A DNA stretch of 59,911 nt. Origin: an uncultured Clostridia bacterium. GTDB lineage: Bacteria; Bacillota; Clostridia; TANB77; CAG-508. The translations under genes and the position numbers were made by a program. Shown here piece by piece: positions 31,179 to 48,707 of the stretch. The DNA lies in contig CANPWE010000005.1 in assembly GCA_947581895.1 (NCBI GenBank), positions 1-59,911 of the forward strand, given 5' to 3'. The notes under the pieces were generated by a model. That model was not told where the DNA came from, made no database searches, and worked only from the letters and a program-made list of their open reading frames with translations. The stretch's first letter is position 1; the number at the start of each line of letters is the position of its first letter.

Positions 31179-33203
31179 ATGAATATAGAAGGAAAAATAA
31201 TAGGTAATAGGTATGAAATTATTGAAAAAGTAGGTAGTGGTGGAATGGCAACAGTATATAAAGCTAGAGATACTATTCTTAACAGATATGTAGCTGTTAA
31301 AGTATTAAGAGATGAATTCACTACTGATGAAGAATTTATAAAAAGGTTTAATACAGAAGCTCAATCAGCTGCCAGATTAACACATCCTAATATAGTTTCA
31401 GTATTTGATGTAGGTCAAGAATATAATATATATTATATAGTAATGGAATTAGTACAAGGGAAAACCTTAAAACAGATTGTTTCAGAAGAAGGTGCACTCC
31501 CATGGAAATGGACAGTAAATATAGCTATACAAATATGTTCTGCATTAGAGATGGCTCATCGAAATGGAATAGTACATAGAGATATAAAACCTCATAACAT
31601 AATTATTACAGAGGATGGTATTGCAAAAGTTACAGATTTTGGAATAGCTAAAGCTGTATCTAATTCAACAATTACAGCATTTGGCACAACAATTGGTTCT
31701 GTACATTACTTTTCTCCAGAACATGCAAGAGGTGGATATACAGATGCAAAATCAGATTTGTATTCATTAGGTGTTGTAATGTATGAAATGGTAACAGGAA
31801 GAGTTCCATTTGATGCAGATACTCCTGTATCTGTTGCATTAAAACATATGCAAGAAGAACCTATAGAACCAATAAAATTAAATTCACAAGTTCCTGAAGC
31901 TGTTAATCAGATAATATTAAAAGCAATGAAAAAAGAGGCTAGTTCAAGATACAGTTCAGCAACCGAAATGATGAAGGACTTAAGTTTAGCAATAAAAAAT
32001 CCAACAGGAAAATTTGTAGAAGATAAAAGCAATGGAGATTTTACAAGAGTAATACCAACAATTAAAGAAAATATTGATGATAAAGATAAATATAAAACAA
32101 ATAAAACAAATAAAGAAAACCGAAGCAAAGGACAACCAAAATCAGCATTTGCAAGGTATTTAGAAAAAAATCCTAAAATGAAACCAGTTATATATTTAGG
32201 ATTTATAATACTATTTATAATGATAGCTGTATTAATATTTTGGGGAAGCTTAAAATTATCAACTAAATTATTAGGTGGAGATTCTAGTGTAACAGACCAA
32301 GCAGGAATAACATTACCAAATTATGCATCAACATCAGTAGAAGAAGCAAAACAAAAATTAGATGAACAAGGAATTAAGTATGAAATTGAAGAAGTGTATA
32401 ATAATGATATTGCACAAGGAATTGTAATATCACAGAAACCATCTGCTGGAACTTTATATGATCCTAATAAACAAAGCCCAGTAAAATTAACTGTAAGCAA
32501 AGGTGTCAAACTTGTTCAAATGCCAAAAGTCAAAGGATTAACTTATAAAGAAGCTGTTGAAGCTTTACAAAAAGTGGAATTAGTAGCAGAAAGAATTGAT
32601 GAAATAAGTCAAACTGTTGAAGAAGGAATAGTAATTAAACAAGATGTTGCAGAAGGTGATAATATAGCTTCTGGTTCAAAAGTAAAAATTCATGTTAGCT
32701 CAGGTAATGGACTTGAAAAAGAAACTGTTCCTTATGTTGTAGATTTAGATATAGAACAAGCAAAAAAAGTTTTAACAGAAAATAAATTGGAGGTAAATAT
32801 AACATATCAAGAAGATACAAATAAATCTAATGGTGTTGTATTAAAACAAAGCCTTGAAGTTGGAAGTGTTGTAGATGAAGGAACTTCAATAACATTAACT
32901 GTAAATAAAATTCAAGAATTAAAAGAAGGAACAATTAATATTAATGTAAAATCTATTACAGGATATAAAGAAGAAAAAGATGAAAATGGAAAAGTTAAAA
33001 CACCAAAAAATGTTTTAGTAAGAGTAAATGTTGATAATGAAGACATTTATAAAAAAGAATTACCTGAAAATACAGAAAATGTTAATGTAACAATAAAAGG
33101 AAAAGGTGTTGTAACTATAAAAGTATATATTGATGAACAAAGATATGCATATGAGCAAATGGATATGAATGGAAATAATACAATCTTAGAAGTTAAAAAG
33201 TAG
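31179..33203 (+). CDS. prkC: Ser/Thr protein kinase with PASTA repeats
   Basis: Hanks kinase motifs GSGGMATVYKA, HRDIKPHN and DFGIA. One TM, then three PASTA-like repeats and a C-terminal extension. Confidence 0.9.
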   Translation: MNIEGKIIGNRYEIIEKVGSGGMATVYKARDTILNRYVAVKVLRDEFTTDEEFIKRFNTEAQSAARLTHPNIVSVFDVGQEYNIYYIVMELVQGKTLKQIVSEEGALPWKWTVNIAIQICSALEMAHRNGIVHRDIKPHNIIITEDGIAKVTDFGIAKAVSNSTITAFGTTIGSVHYFSPEHARGGYTDAKSDLYSLGVVMYEMVTGRVPFDADTPVSVALKHMQEEPIEPIKLNSQVPEAVNQIILKAMKKEASSRYSSATEMMKDLSLAIKNPTGKFVEDKSNGDFTRVIPTIKENIDDKDKYKTNKTNKENRSKGQPKSAFARYLEKNPKMKPVIYLGFIILFIMIAVLIFWGSLKLSTKLLGGDSSVTDQAGITLPNYASTSVEEAKQKLDEQGIKYEIEEVYNNDIAQGIVISQKPSAGTLYDPNKQSPVKLTVSKGVKLVQMPKVKGLTYKEAVEALQKVELVAERIDEISQTVEEGIVIKQDVAEGDNIASGSKVKIHVSSGNGLEKETVPYVVDLDIEQAKKVLTENKLEVNITYQEDTNKSNGVVLKQSLEVGSVVDEGTSITLTVNKIQELKEGTININVKSITGYKEEKDENGKVKTPKNVLVRVNVDNEDIYKKELPENTENVNVTIKGKGVVTIKVYIDEQRYAYEQMDMNGNNTILEVKK

Positions 33204-41201: not shown

Positions 41202-41277
41202 GGGCGCATAGCTCAGCTGGGAGAGCATCTGCCTTACAAGCAGGAGGTCATAGGTTCGAGCCCTATTGCGCCCACCA
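41202..41277 (+). tRNA. tRNA-Val (anticodon UAC)
   Basis: Manual cloverleaf: acceptor GGGCGCA/TGCGCCC, anticodon loop CTTACAA, T-loop TTCGAGC, CCA encoded. Confidence 0.95.
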
Positions 41278-41322
41278 TTTTCTTATAAAAGATATTTAGG
41301 AAACTAAATATTTTTTATTTAC

Positions 41323-41399
41323 GGCCTGGTAGTTCAGTTGGTTAGAACGCTAGCCTGTCACGCTAGAGGTCGACGGTTCGAGCCCGTTCCAGGTCGCCA
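41323..41399 (+). tRNA. tRNA-Asp (anticodon GUC)
   Basis: Acceptor GGCCTGG/CCAGGTC, anticodon loop CTGTCAC, CCA encoded. Confidence 0.95.
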
Positions 41400-41431
41400 T
41401 TTTTTTTTATAAGAAATTTACAATCATAAAA

Positions 41432-41507
<76 letters not shown>

Positions 41508-42290: not shown

Positions 42291-43109
42291 TTAATTACCA
42301 GTATCATAATTGTCAATCAATTCAACAATTTGTGCAATTGTTTCAAATGATTCAGTGAGCTTTGGTAAGAGCAGTTCAATCTGTTCACCAGTATGCTGAA
42401 TGCTAAAACCAGTGGAGTAATTGCCTGATACAGACATATTCTTCAAAATCTCGGAATAGATTTGGTCAAGATGGTGAATGTCTTTTGAAGAAAATGTAAA
42501 TTTGTAGTGTAAATCTAATACACTAATCGAAAAAACTGCTTTATAGCTTACATTTTGGGTAAATGCTTCCCTAATTTCAACATAGCATTTTCTTTCAAGT
42601 CTGGCAACATAGCTTTGAGATACATTAATCTTTTTAGCAATATAGTGCTGTGCTTTATTTGCCATGCGGTAAAGAACGGTTAATTTCTTCTTGTAATCCA
42701 AATAATTTAATACAATATTAAATACTTGAACAAAGATGTCATTATTCTCGATTGTCCGTATAAACTCGTCAGAATATGGTTGTTCAATGATGTCCATCAA
42801 TGTTTTTGTTTCATCACTTTTAGAGTCCTGTGTGATGGGAGAATATAATGAAATATCTTGGGTATGTTTAGATACCTTGCGATAATACATTAAAATCTCA
42901 TTTTTTATGCATTGACCAGCATATGTTGAAAATGCATAATTTTTGTCAGAATCAAATGTCATTACAGCTTTCATTAAGCCAATCGTTCCTATAGAAATGA
43001 TATCATCATATTCCACAGAACAATGCCTTGCTCCTAACCGGTTCGCAATGTGATGAACAAGGTTCTGATTTTTTACAACAAGTTCCTGTTGTTTTGCAGT
43101 AAGCCCCAT
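42291..43109 (-). CDS. Sigma-70 family sigma factor (SigF/G/E/K-like regions 2 and 4) with an extra C-terminal domain of about 85 aa
   Basis: Region 2: DDIISIGTIGLMKAVMTFD...FSTYAGQCIKNEILMYYRK. Region 4 HTH: HYIAKKINVSQSYVARLERK. The tail after region 4 is unmatched. G+C is visibly higher than in the neighbouring genes. Confidence 0.8.
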   Translation of the reverse strand: MGLTAKQQELVVKNQNLVHHIANRLGARHCSVEYDDIISIGTIGLMKAVMTFDSDKNYAFSTYAGQCIKNEILMYYRKVSKHTQDISLYSPITQDSKSDETKTLMDIIEQPYSDEFIRTIENNDIFVQVFNIVLNYLDYKKKLTVLYRMANKAQHYIAKKINVSQSYVARLERKCYVEIREAFTQNVSYKAVFSISVLDLHYKFTFSSKDIHHLDQIYSEILKNMSVSGNYSTGFSIQHTGEQIELLLPKLTESFETIAQIVELIDNYDTGN

Positions 43110-43390: not shown

Positions 43391-44281
43391 ATGGGACTAA
43401 AACTAAGAAATGTATCTAAAACATTTGCAGGAAAAAAAGCAGTTGATAATATTTCACTAGAAATAAACACACCTGGTGTATATGGTTTATTAGGATCAAA
43501 TGGTGCAGGAAAAAGTACTACCATCAGAATGATATTAGGAATTTTAAAAAAAGATGAAGGTGAGATTTCATGGAATGGAAAACAGGTAAACAGAAAAAGT
43601 GTTAATTTTGGATATTTGCCAGAAGAAAGAGGAATATATCCAAAAACTAAAGTGTTTGATCAATTGATGTATTTTGCAGAATTAAAAGGAATGAATAAAA
43701 ATGATGCCAAAGAATCAATAGAAAAATGGGCAAAAAAATTAAAAGTAGAAGAATACTTAAATATGACAGCTGAAAAACTTTCAAAGGGAAACCAGCAAAA
43801 AATTCAATTTATGACAGCAATAATTCATAATCCAGAATTGATTATATTAGATGAGCCATTTAGTGGTTTAGACCCAGTAAATTCAGAAATATTAAAAAAT
43901 ATAATAATAGAATTAGTAGAAAGTGGAAAATATGTTATAATGTCATCTCATCAAATGGTTACTATTGAAGAATTTTGTAGTAATATATTAATTTTAAAAG
44001 AAGGAAAAACAATTTTGCAGGGAAATTTAAAAGAAATTAAGGATTCATATCCTGCAAACAGAGTAGAAATACATGTTAATCAAAATATTGACAATTATAT
44101 TAAAGAATATGGTTTAGAAAATATAAATGAAAAAAATAATGAATATATTATAAAAATAACTGAAGAAGGAACTGCTCATAAACTATTAAATAAATTAATA
44201 TTAGATGGAGTAAAGGTAAGTAAATTCGAAATTATGAAACCTACTTTAAATGATATATTTATAGAAAAGGTAGGTGAGTAA
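43391..44281 (+). CDS. ABC transporter ATP-binding protein (ABC-2/NatA-YhaQ type)
   Basis: Walker A GSNGAGKST, LSKGNQQK signature, ILDEPFSGLD, C-terminal extension typical of the NatA-like family. Confidence 0.9.
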   Translation: MGLKLRNVSKTFAGKKAVDNISLEINTPGVYGLLGSNGAGKSTTIRMILGILKKDEGEISWNGKQVNRKSVNFGYLPEERGIYPKTKVFDQLMYFAELKGMNKNDAKESIEKWAKKLKVEEYLNMTAEKLSKGNQQKIQFMTAIIHNPELIILDEPFSGLDPVNSEILKNIIIELVESGKYVIMSSHQMVTIEEFCSNILILKEGKTILQGNLKEIKDSYPANRVEIHVNQNIDNYIKEYGLENINEKNNEYIIKITEEGTAHKLLNKLILDGVKVSKFEIMKPTLNDIFIEKVGE

Positions 44282-44284
44282 AAT

Positions 44285-45511
44285 ATGAAAGAAACAATAA
44301 CAGTAATGAAATTTACAATAAGTGAAATGATTAAAAGAAAATCATTTGTAATATCTACTTTAATTATTTTAGTATTAATAGTATTAGGTTTTAATGTACC
44401 TAATATGGTAAAAAATATAAAAGGTGAAGATAGTGGTGATAAAATATTAATAGTTGATAATCAAAATATTTTTGAGGGAAAGCTAGAAAATTTAAAAGAT
44501 ATGGGGTTTGAATATGATATTGAAATAGGACAAGAAAATTATGAACAAATAAAACAAAAAATAGAAGAAAACCAAATAGATTCAGCTATTATTATAGAAT
44601 CAAATAATAATAATTATAAAATTAGATATATTGTAGAAAGTAAAACAATGATGGATGGTGTGCCAGAAGATATAGTAAATAGTATTAATACATTATATTC
44701 TAATATTCAAATTGGAAAACTAGGGTTAACAGAAGCAGAACTACAATCTATAACTCCAAATTTTGAATTTAGTTTAGAACAAACAGATGAAGAAGAAGTA
44801 AAGGGAAATGTACTTGTAATGATGATAATGTCAATTGTATTTTTTTATGCAATATATTTTTGTGCTTATCAGGTTTCAAGTTCAATAACAACAGAAAAAA
44901 CATCAAGAATAATGGAAACATTAGTTACTTCTACAAGTCCTAAAACTATTATATGGGGTAAAACCCTTGGAATAGGGCTAGTAGGTTTAGTTCAGATGAT
45001 ATTGATAATAGGAACAGCATTATTTAGTGCAAAAATGTTTTTAGATGAACAACTGATAAATTCTGTACTAGATATGTCTAATATTACAATTTCATTAGGT
45101 ATAATAACCATAATTTATTTTGTTTTAGGATATTTGGCATATTCATTACTATATGCTTTAACTGGTTCAACAGTAAGCAAACCAGAAGATATTAATTCAG
45201 CAAATGCTCCAATTGCAATTTTATCTGTAGTAGGATTTTATTTATCATATTTCACAATGATAAATCCAACAAGTCAATTAAATGTTTATGCATCATTATT
45301 ACCAATTTCTTCACCATTTTGTATGCCATTTAGAGTAATGATGGGATTAGCAAGTACAAAAGATATTATTATGTCTATTTTAATTTTAATTATTACAATA
45401 TTGATAATTGCAAAAATTGCTATAAAAATATATTCATCAGCAATTTTAAATTATGGAACAAAGTTAAGTTTTAAAAATCTTTTTGGTATATTTAAAGATA
45501 AGAAGAACTAA
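44285..45511 (+). CDS. ABC-2 family transporter permease (NatB/YhaP-like)
   Basis: N-terminal TM, a large extracytoplasmic loop, then 5 C-terminal TM helices. Translationally coupled to the ATPase gene. Confidence 0.8.
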   Translation: MKETITVMKFTISEMIKRKSFVISTLIILVLIVLGFNVPNMVKNIKGEDSGDKILIVDNQNIFEGKLENLKDMGFEYDIEIGQENYEQIKQKIEENQIDSAIIIESNNNNYKIRYIVESKTMMDGVPEDIVNSINTLYSNIQIGKLGLTEAELQSITPNFEFSLEQTDEEEVKGNVLVMMIMSIVFFYAIYFCAYQVSSSITTEKTSRIMETLVTSTSPKTIIWGKTLGIGLVGLVQMILIIGTALFSAKMFLDEQLINSVLDMSNITISLGIITIIYFVLGYLAYSLLYALTGSTVSKPEDINSANAPIAILSVVGFYLSYFTMINPTSQLNVYASLLPISSPFCMPFRVMMGLASTKDIIMSILILIITILIIAKIAIKIYSSAILNYGTKLSFKNLFGIFKDKKN

Positions 45512-45546: not shown

Positions 45547-45578
45547 AAAAGGATGAATAGTGTTTTATTCATCCTTTT
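45547..45578. terminator. Bidirectional terminator between the ABC permease and kinase genes
   Basis: 13 bp stem aaaaggatgaata/tattcatcctttt, overlapping the kinase stop codon. Confidence 0.7.
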
Positions 45579-47041
45579 ATAATAATATTCCTTTTTGAAT
45601 TATTTATGTTATTAATATTTTCATATCTGTCAGAAATAATAATATATTCTTGTTTATTATCAAATTTGATTTCAATAGATTTGGTATAATTGTTATGTGT
45701 AATTTCATTAATAATTAAACTTGCATTACAAGAATTTATAGTTTCAAAGGTAGTTATAAATCCAATTCCAGTACCACCTTCACTTTCATGTGTAGAAGCG
45801 GGTTTTAATCCAAGATTTAATAATGTATCAATTTCAAAAGGTATACCACTATCAAAAACACATAATTCATATGATTCATCTTTTATTCCAAATACTACCA
45901 TAATACTTTTATAAGTATTTGAACTATGGTTTATGGCAATAATTGCATTTCTAATTAAATCACCAAGTAATGTTTCTAATTGATTTTGGGGGATTAAGTT
46001 ATTTATCATATGTTGTATATTGCAATCTATTTTTAAGATGAATTCAATATTATTTTTAGTACATTCTGATTGCATATAAGATAACATATCATCTATTTCA
46101 ATAATATTTGTTTTTGTAAGTTTTGGTTGAGTATAGGTTTTAGCAGAATATTCATCTGATAGTTTATTTATTCTATCTAAAAGATTTCCATAATCTTCAC
46201 CAAATTCAGTATTAAATGATGAAGAAGTTTGTTTTATTAAATCATCTAGCTTTTTTCTTAATGCTTCTTGTCTGTGATAAAATTCATGGTTTGATTTTAT
46301 GAGTTTTTGTTTTTCTTCAAGAGCTGTTTGTAGTTTTTGTTTGGTGTCTTGTAATTCTTGTTCGCAGTCTTTTAGGGTGTTATATATAAGTTTTTGCTTT
46401 TGGTATAGGATAAAGATTCTTCTAATGATAGGAATAAGTATTATAGAAGAACATACTAAAGATATAAAAATTATATCACGTGATAAAATCTTATAATTTC
46501 CAAGTAAAAAGCAAGTAATAATAACTATAAAACTAGCTATAAGTATAAATAAATCAAAGTAATTATTATAATCTTTATTATTCAAAAATGGAAAACCATT
46601 TTTAAACCTTTTAATTCTAAAAAAATAGTGTACTGTAATAAATTGCAGTATAGATATTAATAGAAGTAGGATAGTGTTATTAAATGTATCAAAATTAAAA
46701 ATAAGAAAAATTATTGTCCATATTAAAGTTGAAATTAATAAAGTAATATAAGATAATGAAGCCGAGATTATAGTTATTATTAAGCATGAACTAAACTTAT
46801 AATGAGTAAGTAGAGTAAAGAATATACTATATAAAACAAATACACTAATCCATAGTGTAAATCCAGGAAAAATTTTTTTGAAGCATGTCACCATTATAGA
46901 TACTAGAATTGAAAAAGTGAAAATAAATAAATTCTTCAATAAATTACAGCTTTTTAATTGAGTTACTTTTATGTATATATAACTAAGTGATAAGGTAATT
47001 CCAAAAGTTTTTATAAATGTATTAATAAATATTGAATTCAT
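45569..47041 (-). CDS. Polytopic sensor histidine kinase with GHKL ATPase domain (AgrC/ComD-like architecture)
   Basis: About 6-7 TM helices in the first ~225 aa, a coiled linker, a candidate H-box SNHEFYHRQ, N-box LGDLIRNAI, and G-boxes FDSGIPF and GGTGIGF. AAAGGAGG RBS before the ATG at 47041. The track's longer form translates through that RBS. Confidence 0.8.
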   Translation of the reverse strand: MNSIFINTFIKTFGITLSLSYIYIKVTQLKSCNLLKNLFIFTFSILVSIMVTCFKKIFPGFTLWISVFVLYSIFFTLLTHYKFSSCLIITIISASLSYITLLISTLIWTIIFLIFNFDTFNNTILLLLISILQFITVHYFFRIKRFKNGFPFLNNKDYNNYFDLFILIASFIVIITCFLLGNYKILSRDIIFISLVCSSIILIPIIRRIFILYQKQKLIYNTLKDCEQELQDTKQKLQTALEEKQKLIKSNHEFYHRQEALRKKLDDLIKQTSSSFNTEFGEDYGNLLDRINKLSDEYSAKTYTQPKLTKTNIIEIDDMLSYMQSECTKNNIEFILKIDCNIQHMINNLIPQNQLETLLGDLIRNAIIAINHSSNTYKSIMVVFGIKDESYELCVFDSGIPFEIDTLLNLGLKPASTHESEGGTGIGFITTFETINSCNASLIINEITHNNYTKSIEIKFDNKQEYIIISDRYENINNINNSKRNIIIKG

Positions 47042-47080
47042 ATGTCCTCCTTTATTATAAATTTGTATAATTATATAATA

Positions 47081-47129
47081 AAAACAAAAAGTAATCAACC
47101 ATTACTTTAATTTGAAAGTAATAGTTGAT
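47081..47129 (-). terminator. Hairpin terminator/attenuator between the micro-ORF and the kinase gene
   Basis: On the minus strand: 15 bp stem ATCAACTATTACTTT/AAAGTAATGGTTGAT (one G-U pair) followed by TACTTTTTGTTTTT. Confidence 0.7.
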
Positions 47130-47155
47130 TTTTAAATGTGTGTAAACCAATGATA

Positions 47156-47209
47156 TTATAGTCCCATTACCCATGCAACAGTTTCAACAAGTTTATCCCA
47201 CCAAGACAT
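47156..47209 (-). CDS. Unannotated 17-codon ORF MSWWDKLVETVAWVMGL (candidate signalling, amphipathic or leader peptide)
   Basis: AAAAGGAG RBS (47218..47225) 8 nt before the ATG at 47209; TAA stop at 47156..47158. It sits just upstream of the kinase on the same strand. Too short for the ORF track. Confidence 0.5.
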   Translation of the reverse strand: MSWWDKLVETVAWVMGL

Positions 47210-47233
47210 ACAAATCACTCCTTTTATAGTATT

Positions 47234-47250
47234 TGCACAAACCTTGTGCA
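47234..47250. promoter_or_regulatory. Palindromic candidate operator upstream of the micro-ORF
   Basis: TGCACAA-acc-TTGTGCA, perfect 7 bp half-sites, 25-40 nt upstream of the micro-ORF start codon. Confidence 0.4.
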
Positions 47251-47339
47251 TATAAAAAGGATATCATCGTGATAGCCCAAAATAGCTGAAATGAGAGATT
47301 ACAAAACAAATGCAAAAGCTACAAAAAAATAATAAAATA

Positions 47340-47366
47340 TGACAAAATGTGACAAAATATGACAAA
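47340..47366. promoter_or_regulatory. Three direct TGACAAA repeats at exact 10 bp spacing (0A-box-like)
   Basis: TGACAAA at 47340, 47350 and 47360. This is one mismatch from the Spo0A-box consensus TGNCGAA. Looser T[GA]NCAAAA repeats continue from 47300. Confidence 0.45.
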
Positions 47367-47439
47367 CAAAAAATAATAGAATAAATAGACGTAATTACAT
47401 ATATAGGATTAAATGCATGTAACTAAATATCAGGTTATA

Positions 47440-47690
47440 GAAATAGAAAATATAAAAAGGTATAAATAAAGATGTAAAAAACAAAGAATATAAAAATATA
47501 AACATATAAGAAAATAAAGATATAAGAATATAAGAATATAAAAATATAAATATATAAGAAAATAAAAATATAATAATATAAAGATACAAGAAAATAAAAG
47601 TATAAGAATATCAAGATATGAAAATATGAAAAAATAAAGATATAAGAAAAGAAAAATATGAGAATATAAGAATATATAAATATCAAAAAA
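47440..47690. repeat. About 250 bp degenerate, nearly C-free (plus strand) A/T-rich repeat tract
   Basis: Iterations of ATATAAGAA/AATAAAGA-like units. Only about 5 C residues on the plus strand. It gives rise to the artefactual IFLYSY... ORFs in the track. Confidence 0.6.
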
Positions 47691-47710
47691 AGCACTTTAC
47701 TTAAGTGCTT
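47685..47710 (-). terminator. Rho-independent terminator of the response regulator gene
   Basis: On the minus strand: stem AAGCACTT/AAGTGCTT, with the stop codon straddling the stem-loop junction, followed by a 6-7 nt T-run. Confidence 0.7.
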
Positions 47711-48497
47711 TCTTAATCTTATTCGCATAATAATAAACAAACTCAGTAGGTGTAGGAACACCAGTTTCATAATTAATCTTAGCTGTATAATAAGTTTCTA
47801 AATCCTCCAAACTTGAAAATCTCCAAGCATGTAAAATAGCATTTTGCATATTTCTACTAATAGTACTACTAGCACGCTTATATTTATTTATCAAATATTG
47901 AACAACACTAATCTTTTCACCACCATTTTCATTAGTAATTAAATAATAAATTGCATCATGTAAATATGTTCTACCTTTTAAATGTAATCCAATACCAATT
48001 AAATCTAGCTCCTCATTAATCATATTAGAAATCTTTTCTTCATTTTCTTCAGTATCTTCAACAACAATATTACCAGTAAAAGAAGTATCTTCACTATACC
48101 CACTAATCAATACCAAAGTATTAATCACATTTTCAACACTATAATTTTTCTGTTTTTTATAAAAAATTAAATCAACACCTTTATCATGTAAATAATCATA
48201 AATAGTATTTGATGAAACAACAGTATTAACAACTAATTTAGGCTTTTTAGCAAACCTCATCTTTTGTAAAGTTTCTATTAAACCAAAGGTATTTGAATTA
48301 CCAGTACCATTGTGTAATTCAATATCTAAAATTACAGCATCTGGTAAATTAGTTTTTATTAATTTTAGAGCCTCAATATCAGAATCTGTTATTGCTACAA
48401 GATTTACATCATTTCTAGTTTTTATATATTTTTCAAACTTTAAACATTCAGATTTATCATCTTCAACTAATAGTACATTAAGAATTTTATTACTCAT
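47697..48497 (-). CDS. Response regulator with a Spo0A-type C-terminal DNA-binding domain (Spo0A paralogue)
   Basis: Receiver domain: LLVEDD, ILDIEL. The C-terminal domain aligns with Spo0A motifs: LIGIGLHLKGRTYLHDAI, ASSTISRNMQNAILHAW, VPTPTEFVYYYANKI. Confidence 0.85.
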   Translation of the reverse strand: MSNKILNVLLVEDDKSECLKFEKYIKTRNDVNLVAITDSDIEALKLIKTNLPDAVILDIELHNGTGNSNTFGLIETLQKMRFAKKPKLVVNTVVSSNTIYDYLHDKGVDLIFYKKQKNYSVENVINTLVLISGYSEDTSFTGNIVVEDTEENEEKISNMINEELDLIGIGLHLKGRTYLHDAIYYLITNENGGEKISVVQYLINKYKRASSTISRNMQNAILHAWRFSSLEDLETYYTAKINYETGVPTPTEFVYYYANKIKKALK

Positions 48498-48707
48498 TTT
48501 ACCATCATTCCTTCCTAAACTTCATCTAATCTATTTTCAAAATCATAATAACATATTCATTTGCAGAATTCTACAAAATTTTTGCATTAATTATCAAATT
48601 TTATCAATAGCAAGTATAGTAGAATTAATATTAATTAATCAGGTTATATAATATGGTATATAAAAGTAAAAATATAAATTCAACCAAAGAAAGGAAAGGA
48701 ATTTTAA

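Follow-up and report, generated by a model that had tools for sequence, protein, structure and literature searches.

The question raised by the locus described here is whether an open reading frame (ORF) of only 17 codons, placed just ahead of a sensor histidine kinase gene, is a gene in its own right and, if so, what its product does. The locus lies in a 59,911-nt stretch of DNA from an uncultured Clostridia bacterium (GenBank contig CANPWE010000005.1; this whole stretch, with a G+C content of 25%, is called the window hereafter), where a micro-ORF encoding MSWWDKLVETVAWVMGL is found on the minus strand between the genes of a response regulator and of a kinase with seven transmembrane (7-TM) helices. 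In the original prediction, which was made from the letters of the window, three readings of this micro-ORF were offered: a signalling peptide sensed by the adjacent kinase, a small toxin-like peptide resembling the phenol-soluble modulins (PSMs), and a leader peptide of the trp attenuation type. This study reports that the micro-ORF is a genuine gene, conserved in many uncultured gut Clostridia, and not a chance ORF, and that the peptide and the membrane sensor of the kinase form one hypervariable block. Of the three readings, the signalling peptide gives the best-supported model, in which the micro-ORF product would be a leaderless, unprocessed ligand of the 7-TM kinase within an autoregulated loop; we hold this model with about as much confidence as doubt.

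The micro-ORF is a conserved protein-coding gene

Read on the minus strand from 47209 to 47156 (ATG TCT TGG TGG GAT ... ATG GGA CTA TAA), the micro-ORF is preceded by the Shine–Dalgarno (SD) sequence AAAGGAGTGA, which ends 5 nt from the ATG and leaves a gap of 8 nt between GGAG and ATG; the SD, its spacing and the 17 codons are all present exactly as originally described. On the two strands of the window only five ORFs of 10–25 amino acids (aa) start with ATG behind a GGAG-type SD, and the micro-ORF is the sole one of these five with more than one Trp. The ATG of the kinase gene, at 47041, follows 115 nt past the stop codon and is preceded by its own AAAGGAGG.

A scan of species-representative genomes gave 44 loci with kinases 29–72% identical to the kinase of the window; five of the 44 end upstream of the kinase and were left out of the peptide count, and 40 related cassettes were assessed. 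The original prediction had proposed looking for the ORF upstream of homologous kinases, and an equivalent is indeed found there: a Trp-rich ATG ORF of 12–18 codons is present in 38 of the 40 cassettes, about 70–125 nt ahead of the kinase gene, behind an SD that reads GGAG(G)TGA or GGTGGTGA with the same spacing in all. The 39 peptides, 36 of them distinct and with a Trp content of 18%, include MWDKFWEALRWITGLY, MSFWEWLAYWFGL, MDWWTELMKALSYWSR and MFWDWWNHLVQILKGIGT, and follow the common pattern [ST]-[FW]-W-[DE]-x-[LIF]...G-[LI], conservation covering the entire peptide including the N-terminus. When this motif was used as a regular expression on both strands of about 0.5 Mb of sequence, all 36 matches fell at the position between regulator and kinase and none elsewhere.

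The changes between peptide ORFs are those of a translated sequence. Across 14 pairs that are separate in the phylogeny, synonymous differences amount to a proportion (pS) of 0.54 and non-synonymous ones to a proportion (pN) of 0.20, with a ratio pN/pS of 0.36 and a Fisher p of 1e-10, a value that overstates independence, as the loci are kin to one another; the five closest pairs have 16 synonymous and five non-synonymous changes. Because this synonymous excess is combined with a nucleotide identity of just 54% for the ORF among close relatives, the conserved entity is the protein and not the RNA, and the whole peptide is under purifying selection at the amino-acid level. The micro-ORF should be annotated as a gene, whatever its mechanism.

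As to their nature, the peptides are amphipathic helices, with a hydrophobic moment that is maximal at 100–110° per residue and that lies above shuffled sequences in 35 of the 36 distinct peptides (mean z = 1.45, the significance being overstated because the sequences are related). Their Wimley–White interface sums reach −8.7 kcal/mol and their net charge, −3 to +1, is neutral to acidic. An Asp or Glu stands within the first seven residues of every peptide, with an aromatic neighbour in 38 of 39. The peptides contain no leader, double-glycine site or secretion signal and no Cys for a thiolactone, and the tandem Trp of the window is missing in many members of the family, such as MSFWEWLAYWFG.

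Some loci depart from the standard arrangement. In L013, the peptide ORF lies 488 nt upstream of the kinase with an element of about 330 nt between them, and in L016 the peptide ORF has been lost to the same element, with the terminator and the kinase promoter retained. The element (L013 5390..5700; L016 1..330) contains a GC-rich hairpin GTAGGGG...CCC and inverted ends AATCTGTTAAAAACA.../...TGTTTTAACAGATT; it has no Rfam match and looks like a miniature inverted-repeat transposable element. A GC-rich hairpin similar to that of the element was also seen upstream of the cassette in L033. The first cassette of L025 lacks the peptide gene and is a tandem duplicate of a complete cassette, and L027 has a similar copy without a peptide gene and with a frameshifted kinase. 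These duplicates (L025 5164..7461; L027 1701..3952) consist of the Xre, regulator and kinase genes, the kinase starting about 25–35 nt past the regulator, and the sensor of the L025 copy is 77% identical to that of the neighbouring peptide-bearing cassette; such copies may be 'orphan receptors' that listen to the peptide of their neighbour. L044 (3329..7443) has a single regulator gene and a single peptide gene (MFWDWWNHLVQILKGIGT), behind which two kinase genes stand in tandem; no Xre is present, and a LytTR-type regulator is encoded upstream on the opposite strand.

Peptide and sensor form a single hypervariable block

In seven genomes (the window and L002–L007), the cassette occupies the same chromosomal site next to rpsO-pnp, whose proteins are 95–97% (RpsO) and 90–97% (PNPase) identical. 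Within the cassette, protein identity is 76–81% for the regulator, 69% for the DHp domain and 72% for the CA domain of the kinase, falling to 35% for the peptide and to 25–39% for the four segments of the kinase membrane domain. The nucleotide identities follow the same course along the locus: 80% for the regulator, 62% for the peptide promoter, the 54% already given for the peptide ORF, 44% for the terminator with the kinase promoter, 48% for the kinase TM region, 62% for DHp and 71% for CA. The peptide and the membrane sensor of the kinase are a single contiguous hypervariable block between conserved flanks, with the regulator domains varying least within the locus. Hypervariable blocks of this kind are the signature of the agr, comQXP and comCD specificity loci. 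We take the block as a sign that peptide and sensor work together and that selection favours their diversification into private channels, a picture that agrees better with a signal passed between cells than with a feedback factor inside one.

The peptide gene as a separate transcription unit

The anatomy of the locus (Table 1) suggests that the peptide and the kinase are made from different messages. A hairpin of 12–22 bp with a T-run stands behind the peptide ORF at every locus, its stems varying in sequence yet staying paired; in the window it is the terminator that had been placed after the ORF in the original prediction. Built into this terminator, the kinase appears to have its own near-consensus σA promoter: TTGATT-N17-TATAAT is exact in most loci, and no more than two of its 12 hexamer bases deviate in 38 of 39. 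The presumed peptide transcript (about 170 nt) is predicted to be structured (z = −3.2) and forms the terminator in both the minimum-free-energy and the centroid fold, and neither fold of the window transcript contains an antiterminator or an alternative pairing between ORF and terminator.

A putative promoter element of the peptide gene, TGnTAYnnT, is present in 36 of 39 loci, at 40–68 nt ahead of the ATG in all but one of them, where the distance is 82 nt. Beyond it lies an array of TTTGTCAYAT direct repeats that is unique in the 60-kb window, and the relatives likewise have direct repeats with a period of 10–11 nt upstream of the peptide gene. The tandem motif TGTCA-N5/6-TGTCA occurs eight times upstream of peptide genes (forward), seven times in the intergenic regions between Xre and regulator (reverse) and once in the other 463 kb; in this strict form it is limited to the clade of the window, distant cassettes having degenerate forms (TGTAAT, ATCAT). 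Tandem TGACA-N5/6-TGACA pairs are strongly enriched at the regulator promoter of the relatives, in the orientation opposite to that of the boxes before the peptide gene. The 0A box bound by Spo0A is TGTCGAA; the TGTCAY direct repeats, spaced by one helical turn, resemble this box and fit a putative binding site of the Spo0A-like regulator. The recognition helix of the regulator is almost invariant across cassettes. A palindrome is found in the presumed 5′ leader in close relatives and just upstream of the −10-like element in distant ones; it may serve as a stabilizing 5′ hairpin or as an operator, and in distant relatives it may also terminate the regulator transcript. As judged from these elements, the peptide gene would be an insulated, separate transcription unit with a regulated-looking promoter.

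In the window, an 8-nt A/T unit (TATAAAAA, plus strand) repeated about 32 times (47436..47688) takes up most of the gap between the terminator of the regulator gene and the peptide promoter; this stretch may be intrinsically bent or spacer DNA. The spacers of the relatives are shorter and variable, at 179–462 nt.

Table 1. Features of the cassette, with positions in the window
Feature	Position	Strand	Description
Kinase gene terminator, end of cassette	45547..45578	−	Terminator prediction
Sensor histidine kinase, 490 aa	45569..47041	−	7 TM, DHp (SNHEFYHRQ) and CA; homology and AlphaFold2 model
Putative kinase promoter	47070..47098	−	TTGATT-17 nt-TATAAT; −35 hexamer is the end of the terminator 3′ arm
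Intrinsic terminator of peptide transcript (predicted)	47080..47130	−	16-bp stem and T-run; starts about 25 nt past the stop codon
Micro-gene for MSWWDKLVETVAWVMGL, 17 aa	47156..47209	−	ATG 47209, TAA 47156; leaderless, Trp-rich, amphipathic
Shine–Dalgarno sequence AAAGGAGTGA	47215..47224	−	Read 47224..47215, upstream of the micro-ORF
Palindrome, presumed 5′ leader	47234..47250	−	TGCACAA-GGT-TTGTGCA; arms co-vary in relatives (GCAC/GTGC versus GTAC/GTAC)
Extended −10-like element TGATATCCT, putative peptide promoter	47258..47266	−	TGnTAYnnT
Three direct repeats upstream of peptide promoter	47334..47366	−	TTTGTCAYAT, 10-nt period; Tandem Repeats Finder: period 10, 3.3 copies
Intrinsic terminator of regulator gene	47686..47714	−	Terminator prediction
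Response regulator, 266 aa	47697..48497	−	Receiver and Spo0A_C DNA-binding domain; Pfam Spo0A_C 55 bits, PDB Spo0A C-domain matches
Putative regulator promoter region	48568..48607	−	Tandem TTGATA boxes, 10-nt period, and a TTGATA-18-TAGAAT site; TTGACA in relatives
Small Xre-type helix-turn-helix protein, 121 aa	48708..49073	+	Divergent from regulator, facultative fourth member; Pfam HTH_3/HTH_19

The kinase and the regulator

The kinase belongs to no established family: its single Pfam match, HATPase_c_2, is below threshold (16.7 bits), and no NCBIfam family and no HPK10 or HATPase_c_5 model matches it. Its homologues number more than 1300, all in uncultured Clostridia, and an exhaustive profile search gave 1379 clusters at 50% identity, 692 of them at E ≤ 1e-30; the database relatives of both the kinase and the regulator are all unnamed proteins of metagenome-assembled genomes. 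In the AlphaFold2 model, with a mean predicted local distance difference test score of 78, the transmembrane helices span residues 3–27, 34–54, 60–79, 83–115, 123–140, 160–181 and 188 onward, with outer loops of just 3–7 residues, a basic cytoplasmic loop that contains a conserved RFKNGFPF and a long helix that leads into the DHp domain, followed by the CA domain. The H, N and G boxes are conserved. In a fold search only the DHp/CA part gave matches (HK853, CpxA, the cytoplasmic part of AgrC and similar), and no solved counterpart of the transmembrane sensor was found by sequence or fold search of structures. As the protein has seven helices and a cytoplasmic C-terminus, its N-terminus should face outward. 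All 30 full-length receptors have the same Lys11 in the first transmembrane helix (TM1), which suggests, speculatively, that it may be contacted by the Asp or Glu of the peptide.

The regulator reaches 91.8 bits against the Spo0A equivalog model TIGR02875, far under the cut-off of 200, and is for this reason regarded as a distant Spo0A paralogue. Its acidic pocket and phospho-acceptor Asp are conserved.

Proposed signalling loop

In the model that we favour, the kinase would be made from its own constitutive σA promoter, which is seen as a sequence, and the peptide from a separate short mRNA whose anatomy is as described above: a promoter downstream of three direct-repeat boxes, the SD, the 54-nt ORF and the terminator. 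The peptide, either at full length or without its N-formylmethionine, would exit the cell by an unlinked route and enter the membrane interface, where it would bind the membrane sensor of the kinase, possibly by pairing its universal Asp or Glu with the invariant TM1 Lys. The kinase would then phosphorylate the Spo0A-like regulator, which would bind the TGTCAY repeats at the peptide promoter and at the promoter between Xre and regulator to close an autoinduction loop, and which would also control further targets elsewhere. The sign of the feedback, the downstream regulon and the binding of the peptide to the kinase and of the regulator to the repeats are what we infer from this arrangement, and the sensing and secretion of the peptide are likewise conditional.

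What favours this model over the other two original readings is the linkage of peptide and kinase in 38 cassettes, the hypervariable block and the regulated-looking promoter. The tie between peptide and sensor is also argued by the peptide-less duplicate receptor cassettes that adjoin a peptide-bearing one and by the presence of several divergent cassettes per genome. The receptor as modelled seems suited to such a ligand, with seven transmembrane helices and minimal loops, a canonical DHp/CA and an invariant Lys11 that would face acidic peptides. The class of leaderless communication peptides (LCPs; PMC10518010) is a precedent: peptides that are translated directly and have no leader can serve as secreted signals and do without the usual machinery for export.

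Several points weigh against the ligand model. Release of the peptide from the cell is purely presumed: the peptide has no secretion signal, and no exporter, importer, protease, modification or immunity gene recurs with the cassette within ±6 kb. All carriers are uncultured and known from their sequences, and the promoter, operator and transcription-start calls are consensus matches. The kinship of the loci, mentioned above for the test of selection, likewise makes the p-values look stronger than they are. The coupling of peptide and sensor also has partial counter-examples: the peptides of L017 and L022 share 12 of 13 residues and have sensors that are just 30% identical, and those of L011 and L012 differ by a terminal Leu alone and have sensors that are 56% identical within kinases that are otherwise 93% identical. 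Finally, a global correlation of distances between the peptide and seven protein segments, partial correlations included, did not single out the sensor, all segments tracking the phylogeny and the sensor being saturated.

Alternative explanations

The lack of a linked exporter and of a secretion signal counts for a reading in which the peptide never leaves the cell. As a cell-autonomous feedback modulator, it would sit in the interface of the inner leaflet and bind the membrane domain of the kinase, positively or negatively, much as MgrB and SafA act on PhoQ; the strongly interface-seeking character of the peptides (down to the −8.7 kcal/mol noted above), a peptide promoter that looks regulator-controlled and the observation that a peptide can stay constant while the sensor drifts all agree with this. 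Housekeeping feedback, however, offers no obvious reason for a hypervariable peptide–sensor block or for many paralogous cassettes per genome, and the peptide-less duplicate receptors beside a peptide-bearing cassette imply action in trans on a second kinase. Moreover, the structural model puts the N-terminus of the kinase and Lys11 near the outer leaflet, and 12–18 aa are too short to cross the bilayer as MgrB does. We consider a modulator of this kind unlikely, and yet the best of the alternatives.

The ABC transporter pair on which the PSM-like reading leaned has no counterpart in the related loci, where immunity or export genes likewise do not recur. In this reading, the system would sense another cue and induce a membrane-active effector, namely a PSM- or δ-toxin-like surfactant, a cytolysin or a small leaderless bacteriocin. 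One half of the original proposal stands, as the product is a leaderless, Trp-rich amphipathic helix; a dedicated strong SD and a terminator are also typical of highly expressed peptide genes, AgrA directly drives the psm genes in staphylococci, and an ABC-2 transporter happens to adjoin the cassette in the window. The other half fails: the ABC-2 pair is unconserved, its match to the PmtA model is generic (106 bits against a cut-off of 350), and the peptide is shorter than any PSM. The peptides are neutral to acidic and 12–18 aa long; the PSMs and leaderless bacteriocins known to date exceed them in length and are as a rule cationic. Nor would a role as effector account for the parallel hypervariability of the kinase sensor and the neighbouring peptide gene, or for the constant position of this gene between regulator and kinase, and we regard such a role as distinctly improbable.

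It was also considered whether the peptide could be a cytoplasmic partner of the Xre repressor, as an anti-repressor like SinI for SinR that is induced by a Spo0A-type regulator, or of the regulator itself. The cassette does combine a Spo0A-like regulator with an Xre protein of about the size of SinR, extended by a helical part at its C-terminus, and the W-x-x-L helix of the peptide is, presumably, loosely reminiscent of the first helix of SinI. This lead was demoted because the Xre protein showed no SinR/SinI similarity in Pfam and PDB searches and because the peptide persists without Xre, three cassettes keeping the peptide, regulator and kinase in its absence. The C-terminal region of Xre follows the variation of the peptide no more closely than other segments, and the regulator domains vary least, next to a hypervariable peptide; a partnership of either kind is very improbable.

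Attenuation by a leader peptide, the third of the original readings, has to be given up almost entirely. It would have translation of the Trp codons control the terminator and hence the kinase, by trp-type attenuation or TnaC-like arrest, and was prompted in the window by tandem Trp codons at positions 3–4 and a terminator 25 nt past the stop codon. The kinase has, however, its own TTGATT-17-TATAAT downstream of and overlapping the terminator in 38 of 39 loci; no alternative pairing of ORF and terminator is found in the two folds, selection acts on amino acids along the entire peptide, tandem Trp is missing from many of the peptides and nothing ties the downstream gene to tryptophan metabolism. 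Equally negligible is the notion that the ORF is incidental to a small regulatory RNA or a DNA operator region, since the nucleotides are poorly conserved while the ORF, start, SD spacing, length and amino-acid pattern are kept with an excess of synonymous changes, although the structured transcript and the existence of dual-function RNAs such as RNAIII would allow a dual role beside the clearly selected coding.

Comparison with known systems

With the ligand model in hand, the cassette can be compared with characterized systems, and it is classed as peptide-sensing two-component signalling built of uncharacterized families. As in agr, comCDE, plnABCD and sppIP-K-R, a small peptide gene lies directly upstream of a polytopic kinase with 6–7 TM helices and short loops, and the regulator is encoded in the same cassette (38 cassettes); the anatomy suggests autoinduction, there are several specificity variants, and a hypervariable peptide and sensor stand between conserved flanks, with the partial counter-examples given above (L017/L022, L011/L012). 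Unlike those systems, the cassette has no leader, double-glycine site or thiolactone Cys and no linked AgrB- or ComAB-type gene within ±6 kb; its regulator has a Spo0A_C rather than a LytTR output, its kinase is not of the HPK10 type, its order is regulator–peptide–kinase with separate peptide and kinase promoters, and a divergent Xre gene is added.

The LCPs (SIP/RopB of Streptococcus pyogenes and relatives; PMC10518010) are similar in that an ultrashort ORF is the mature peptide, with no secretion or processing signal and no local exporter, and in that the peptide gene adjoins its presumed receptor and is probably autoinduced. They differ in being sensed in the cytosol by RopB/Rgg (RRNPPA) after re-import, whereas the partner here is a membrane kinase with a two-component output, and in their length of about 8 aa compared with 12–18 aa for the acidic to neutral, Trp-rich peptides of the cassette. 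The ComS/XIP and short hydrophobic peptide (SHP) systems also start from short (17–24 aa), unannotated hydrophobic or aromatic ORFs, some with WW, and their exporter PptAB is encoded elsewhere; in contrast to the present peptides, they are cut to C-terminal 7–8-mers, have basic N-termini and act on cytoplasmic Rgg/ComR receptors. No Rgg gene was found near the cassette in any locus examined.

With the PSMs and δ-toxin, the peptides share a directly translated, leaderless amphipathic α-helix and, under the ligand model, the control by a peptide-sensing two-component system. PSMs are 20–26 aa (α type) or about 44 aa (β type) in length, need the Pmt ABC exporter and act as effectors, whereas the peptides of the cassette are shorter and not cationic, and the ABC pair of the window is not conserved; an exporter encoded elsewhere may exist. 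MgrB and SafA are likewise very small proteins; they act on the membrane domain of a cognate kinase and are induced by its regulator, as may be the case here, where direct-repeat boxes lie upstream of the peptide promoter and at the regulator promoter. They are, however, conserved proteins of 47–65 aa with a true transmembrane helix that are encoded away from the kinase, whereas the peptide of the cassette is amphipathic rather than uniformly hydrophobic, and hypervariable. The regulator has the receiver and Spo0A_C architecture of Spo0A, and the TGTCAYA boxes with their 10-nt period resemble tandem 0A boxes; unlike Spo0A, it is paired with a dedicated kinase and peptide, and the genomes each contain several copies of it.

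A literature search that included literal peptide strings, and whose coverage did not extend to subscription journals, gave no description of the cassette. Nearest in concept were the LCPs and an AgrB-linked 44-aa family from a survey of small genes in the human microbiome, the latter a different system. The pheromones known to be sensed by kinases arise by processing of longer precursors, and the leaderless signals known so far are read by cytosolic receptors of the Rgg type; if the ligand model is true, the peptide would be, to our knowledge, the first known leaderless, directly translated ligand of a membrane histidine kinase.

A wider proposal is put forward tentatively, as possible and still somewhat doubtful: that the cassettes represent an unrecognized class of Gram-positive quorum sensing that is widespread in uncultured gut and rumen Clostridia. 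Genes of 12–18 codons would give leaderless, possibly N-formylated, Trp-rich signals that reach the outside without a dedicated exporter and that would be sensed at the outer leaflet by a new family of 7-TM kinases through a buried Lys, with a Spo0A paralogue as the output that could plausibly gate sporulation-like developmental decisions, many private pherotypes and several channels per genome. If the ligand model is true, the peptide genes, at 39–57 nt, would be among the smallest functional protein-coding genes; they are invisible to standard annotation, and the kinase family that accompanies them comprises about 1400 clusters at 50% identity in metagenomes. The model would also provide a handle on cell–cell communication in abundant uncultured gut and rumen Clostridia as well as dozens of natural peptide/receptor pairs for studying the evolution of specificity or for building orthogonal signalling channels. 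The link to a Spo0A paralogue would raise the question of an input to sporulation-type decisions and, more speculatively, formylated amphipathic peptides could be seen by the formyl-peptide receptors of the host.

Composition and neighbourhood of the cassette

The neighbourhoods were compared by tblastn and by all-against-all clustering of all ORFs within about 6 kb. The recurring neighbours of the peptide gene are the kinase, the regulator and usually Xre, and no others. As Xre is absent from L029, L035 and L044, which have the regulator, peptide and kinase, the minimal module is regulator–peptide–kinase. Several genomes contain two or three divergent cassettes. Xre stands beside the regulator in 34–36 of 39 cassettes; the Xre proteins, which are the only candidates for an HTH receptor of the RopB/Rgg kind, are 102–136 aa in length and have no domain of TPR size, and their helical C-terminal extension of about 45 aa is conserved. 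A small protein with the motif FDFxxPxYIIDEL, 67 aa long in the window (49275..49478, plus strand), adjoins Xre in at least four loci, including L003 and L027, where it is about 100 aa long; it has no Pfam match.

On the other side of the cassette, the ABC ATPase and ABC-2 permease at 43391..45511, correctly located in the original prediction, are convergent with the kinase and are followed by a sigma factor. The latter, a sigma-70 family protein (42291..43109, minus strand), is nearest to SigK/SigE (128 bits, under the cut-offs) and has an extra C-terminal region of about 90 aa. The ABC-2 pair and this SigK/E-like factor were considered as parts of the system and rejected, being conserved in no related locus and peculiar to the window. 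Three tRNA genes (41202..41504, plus strand) lie just upstream of the variable region, which harbours the ABC pair and the sigma factor together with a membrane protein of 95 aa. A phage, plasmid or other mobile origin of the cassette was rejected, as searches with the kinase in collections of phages, plasmids and viral contigs retrieved nothing, and an Rfam scan of the region gave no match. Elsewhere in the window, a 13-aa ORF with five Cys that has an SD and an ATG (MYRTNCCAKCCNC; 31665..31706, minus strand) was rejected as a gene, since it is most likely an artefact, lying antisense inside a 674-aa gene on the plus strand (31179..33203).

A SpoIVA-like sporulation protein adjoins the cassette in L035 (3056..4534) and in L031 (7589..9067). 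At least some of the carriers look like spore formers and should then also encode a true Spo0A elsewhere.

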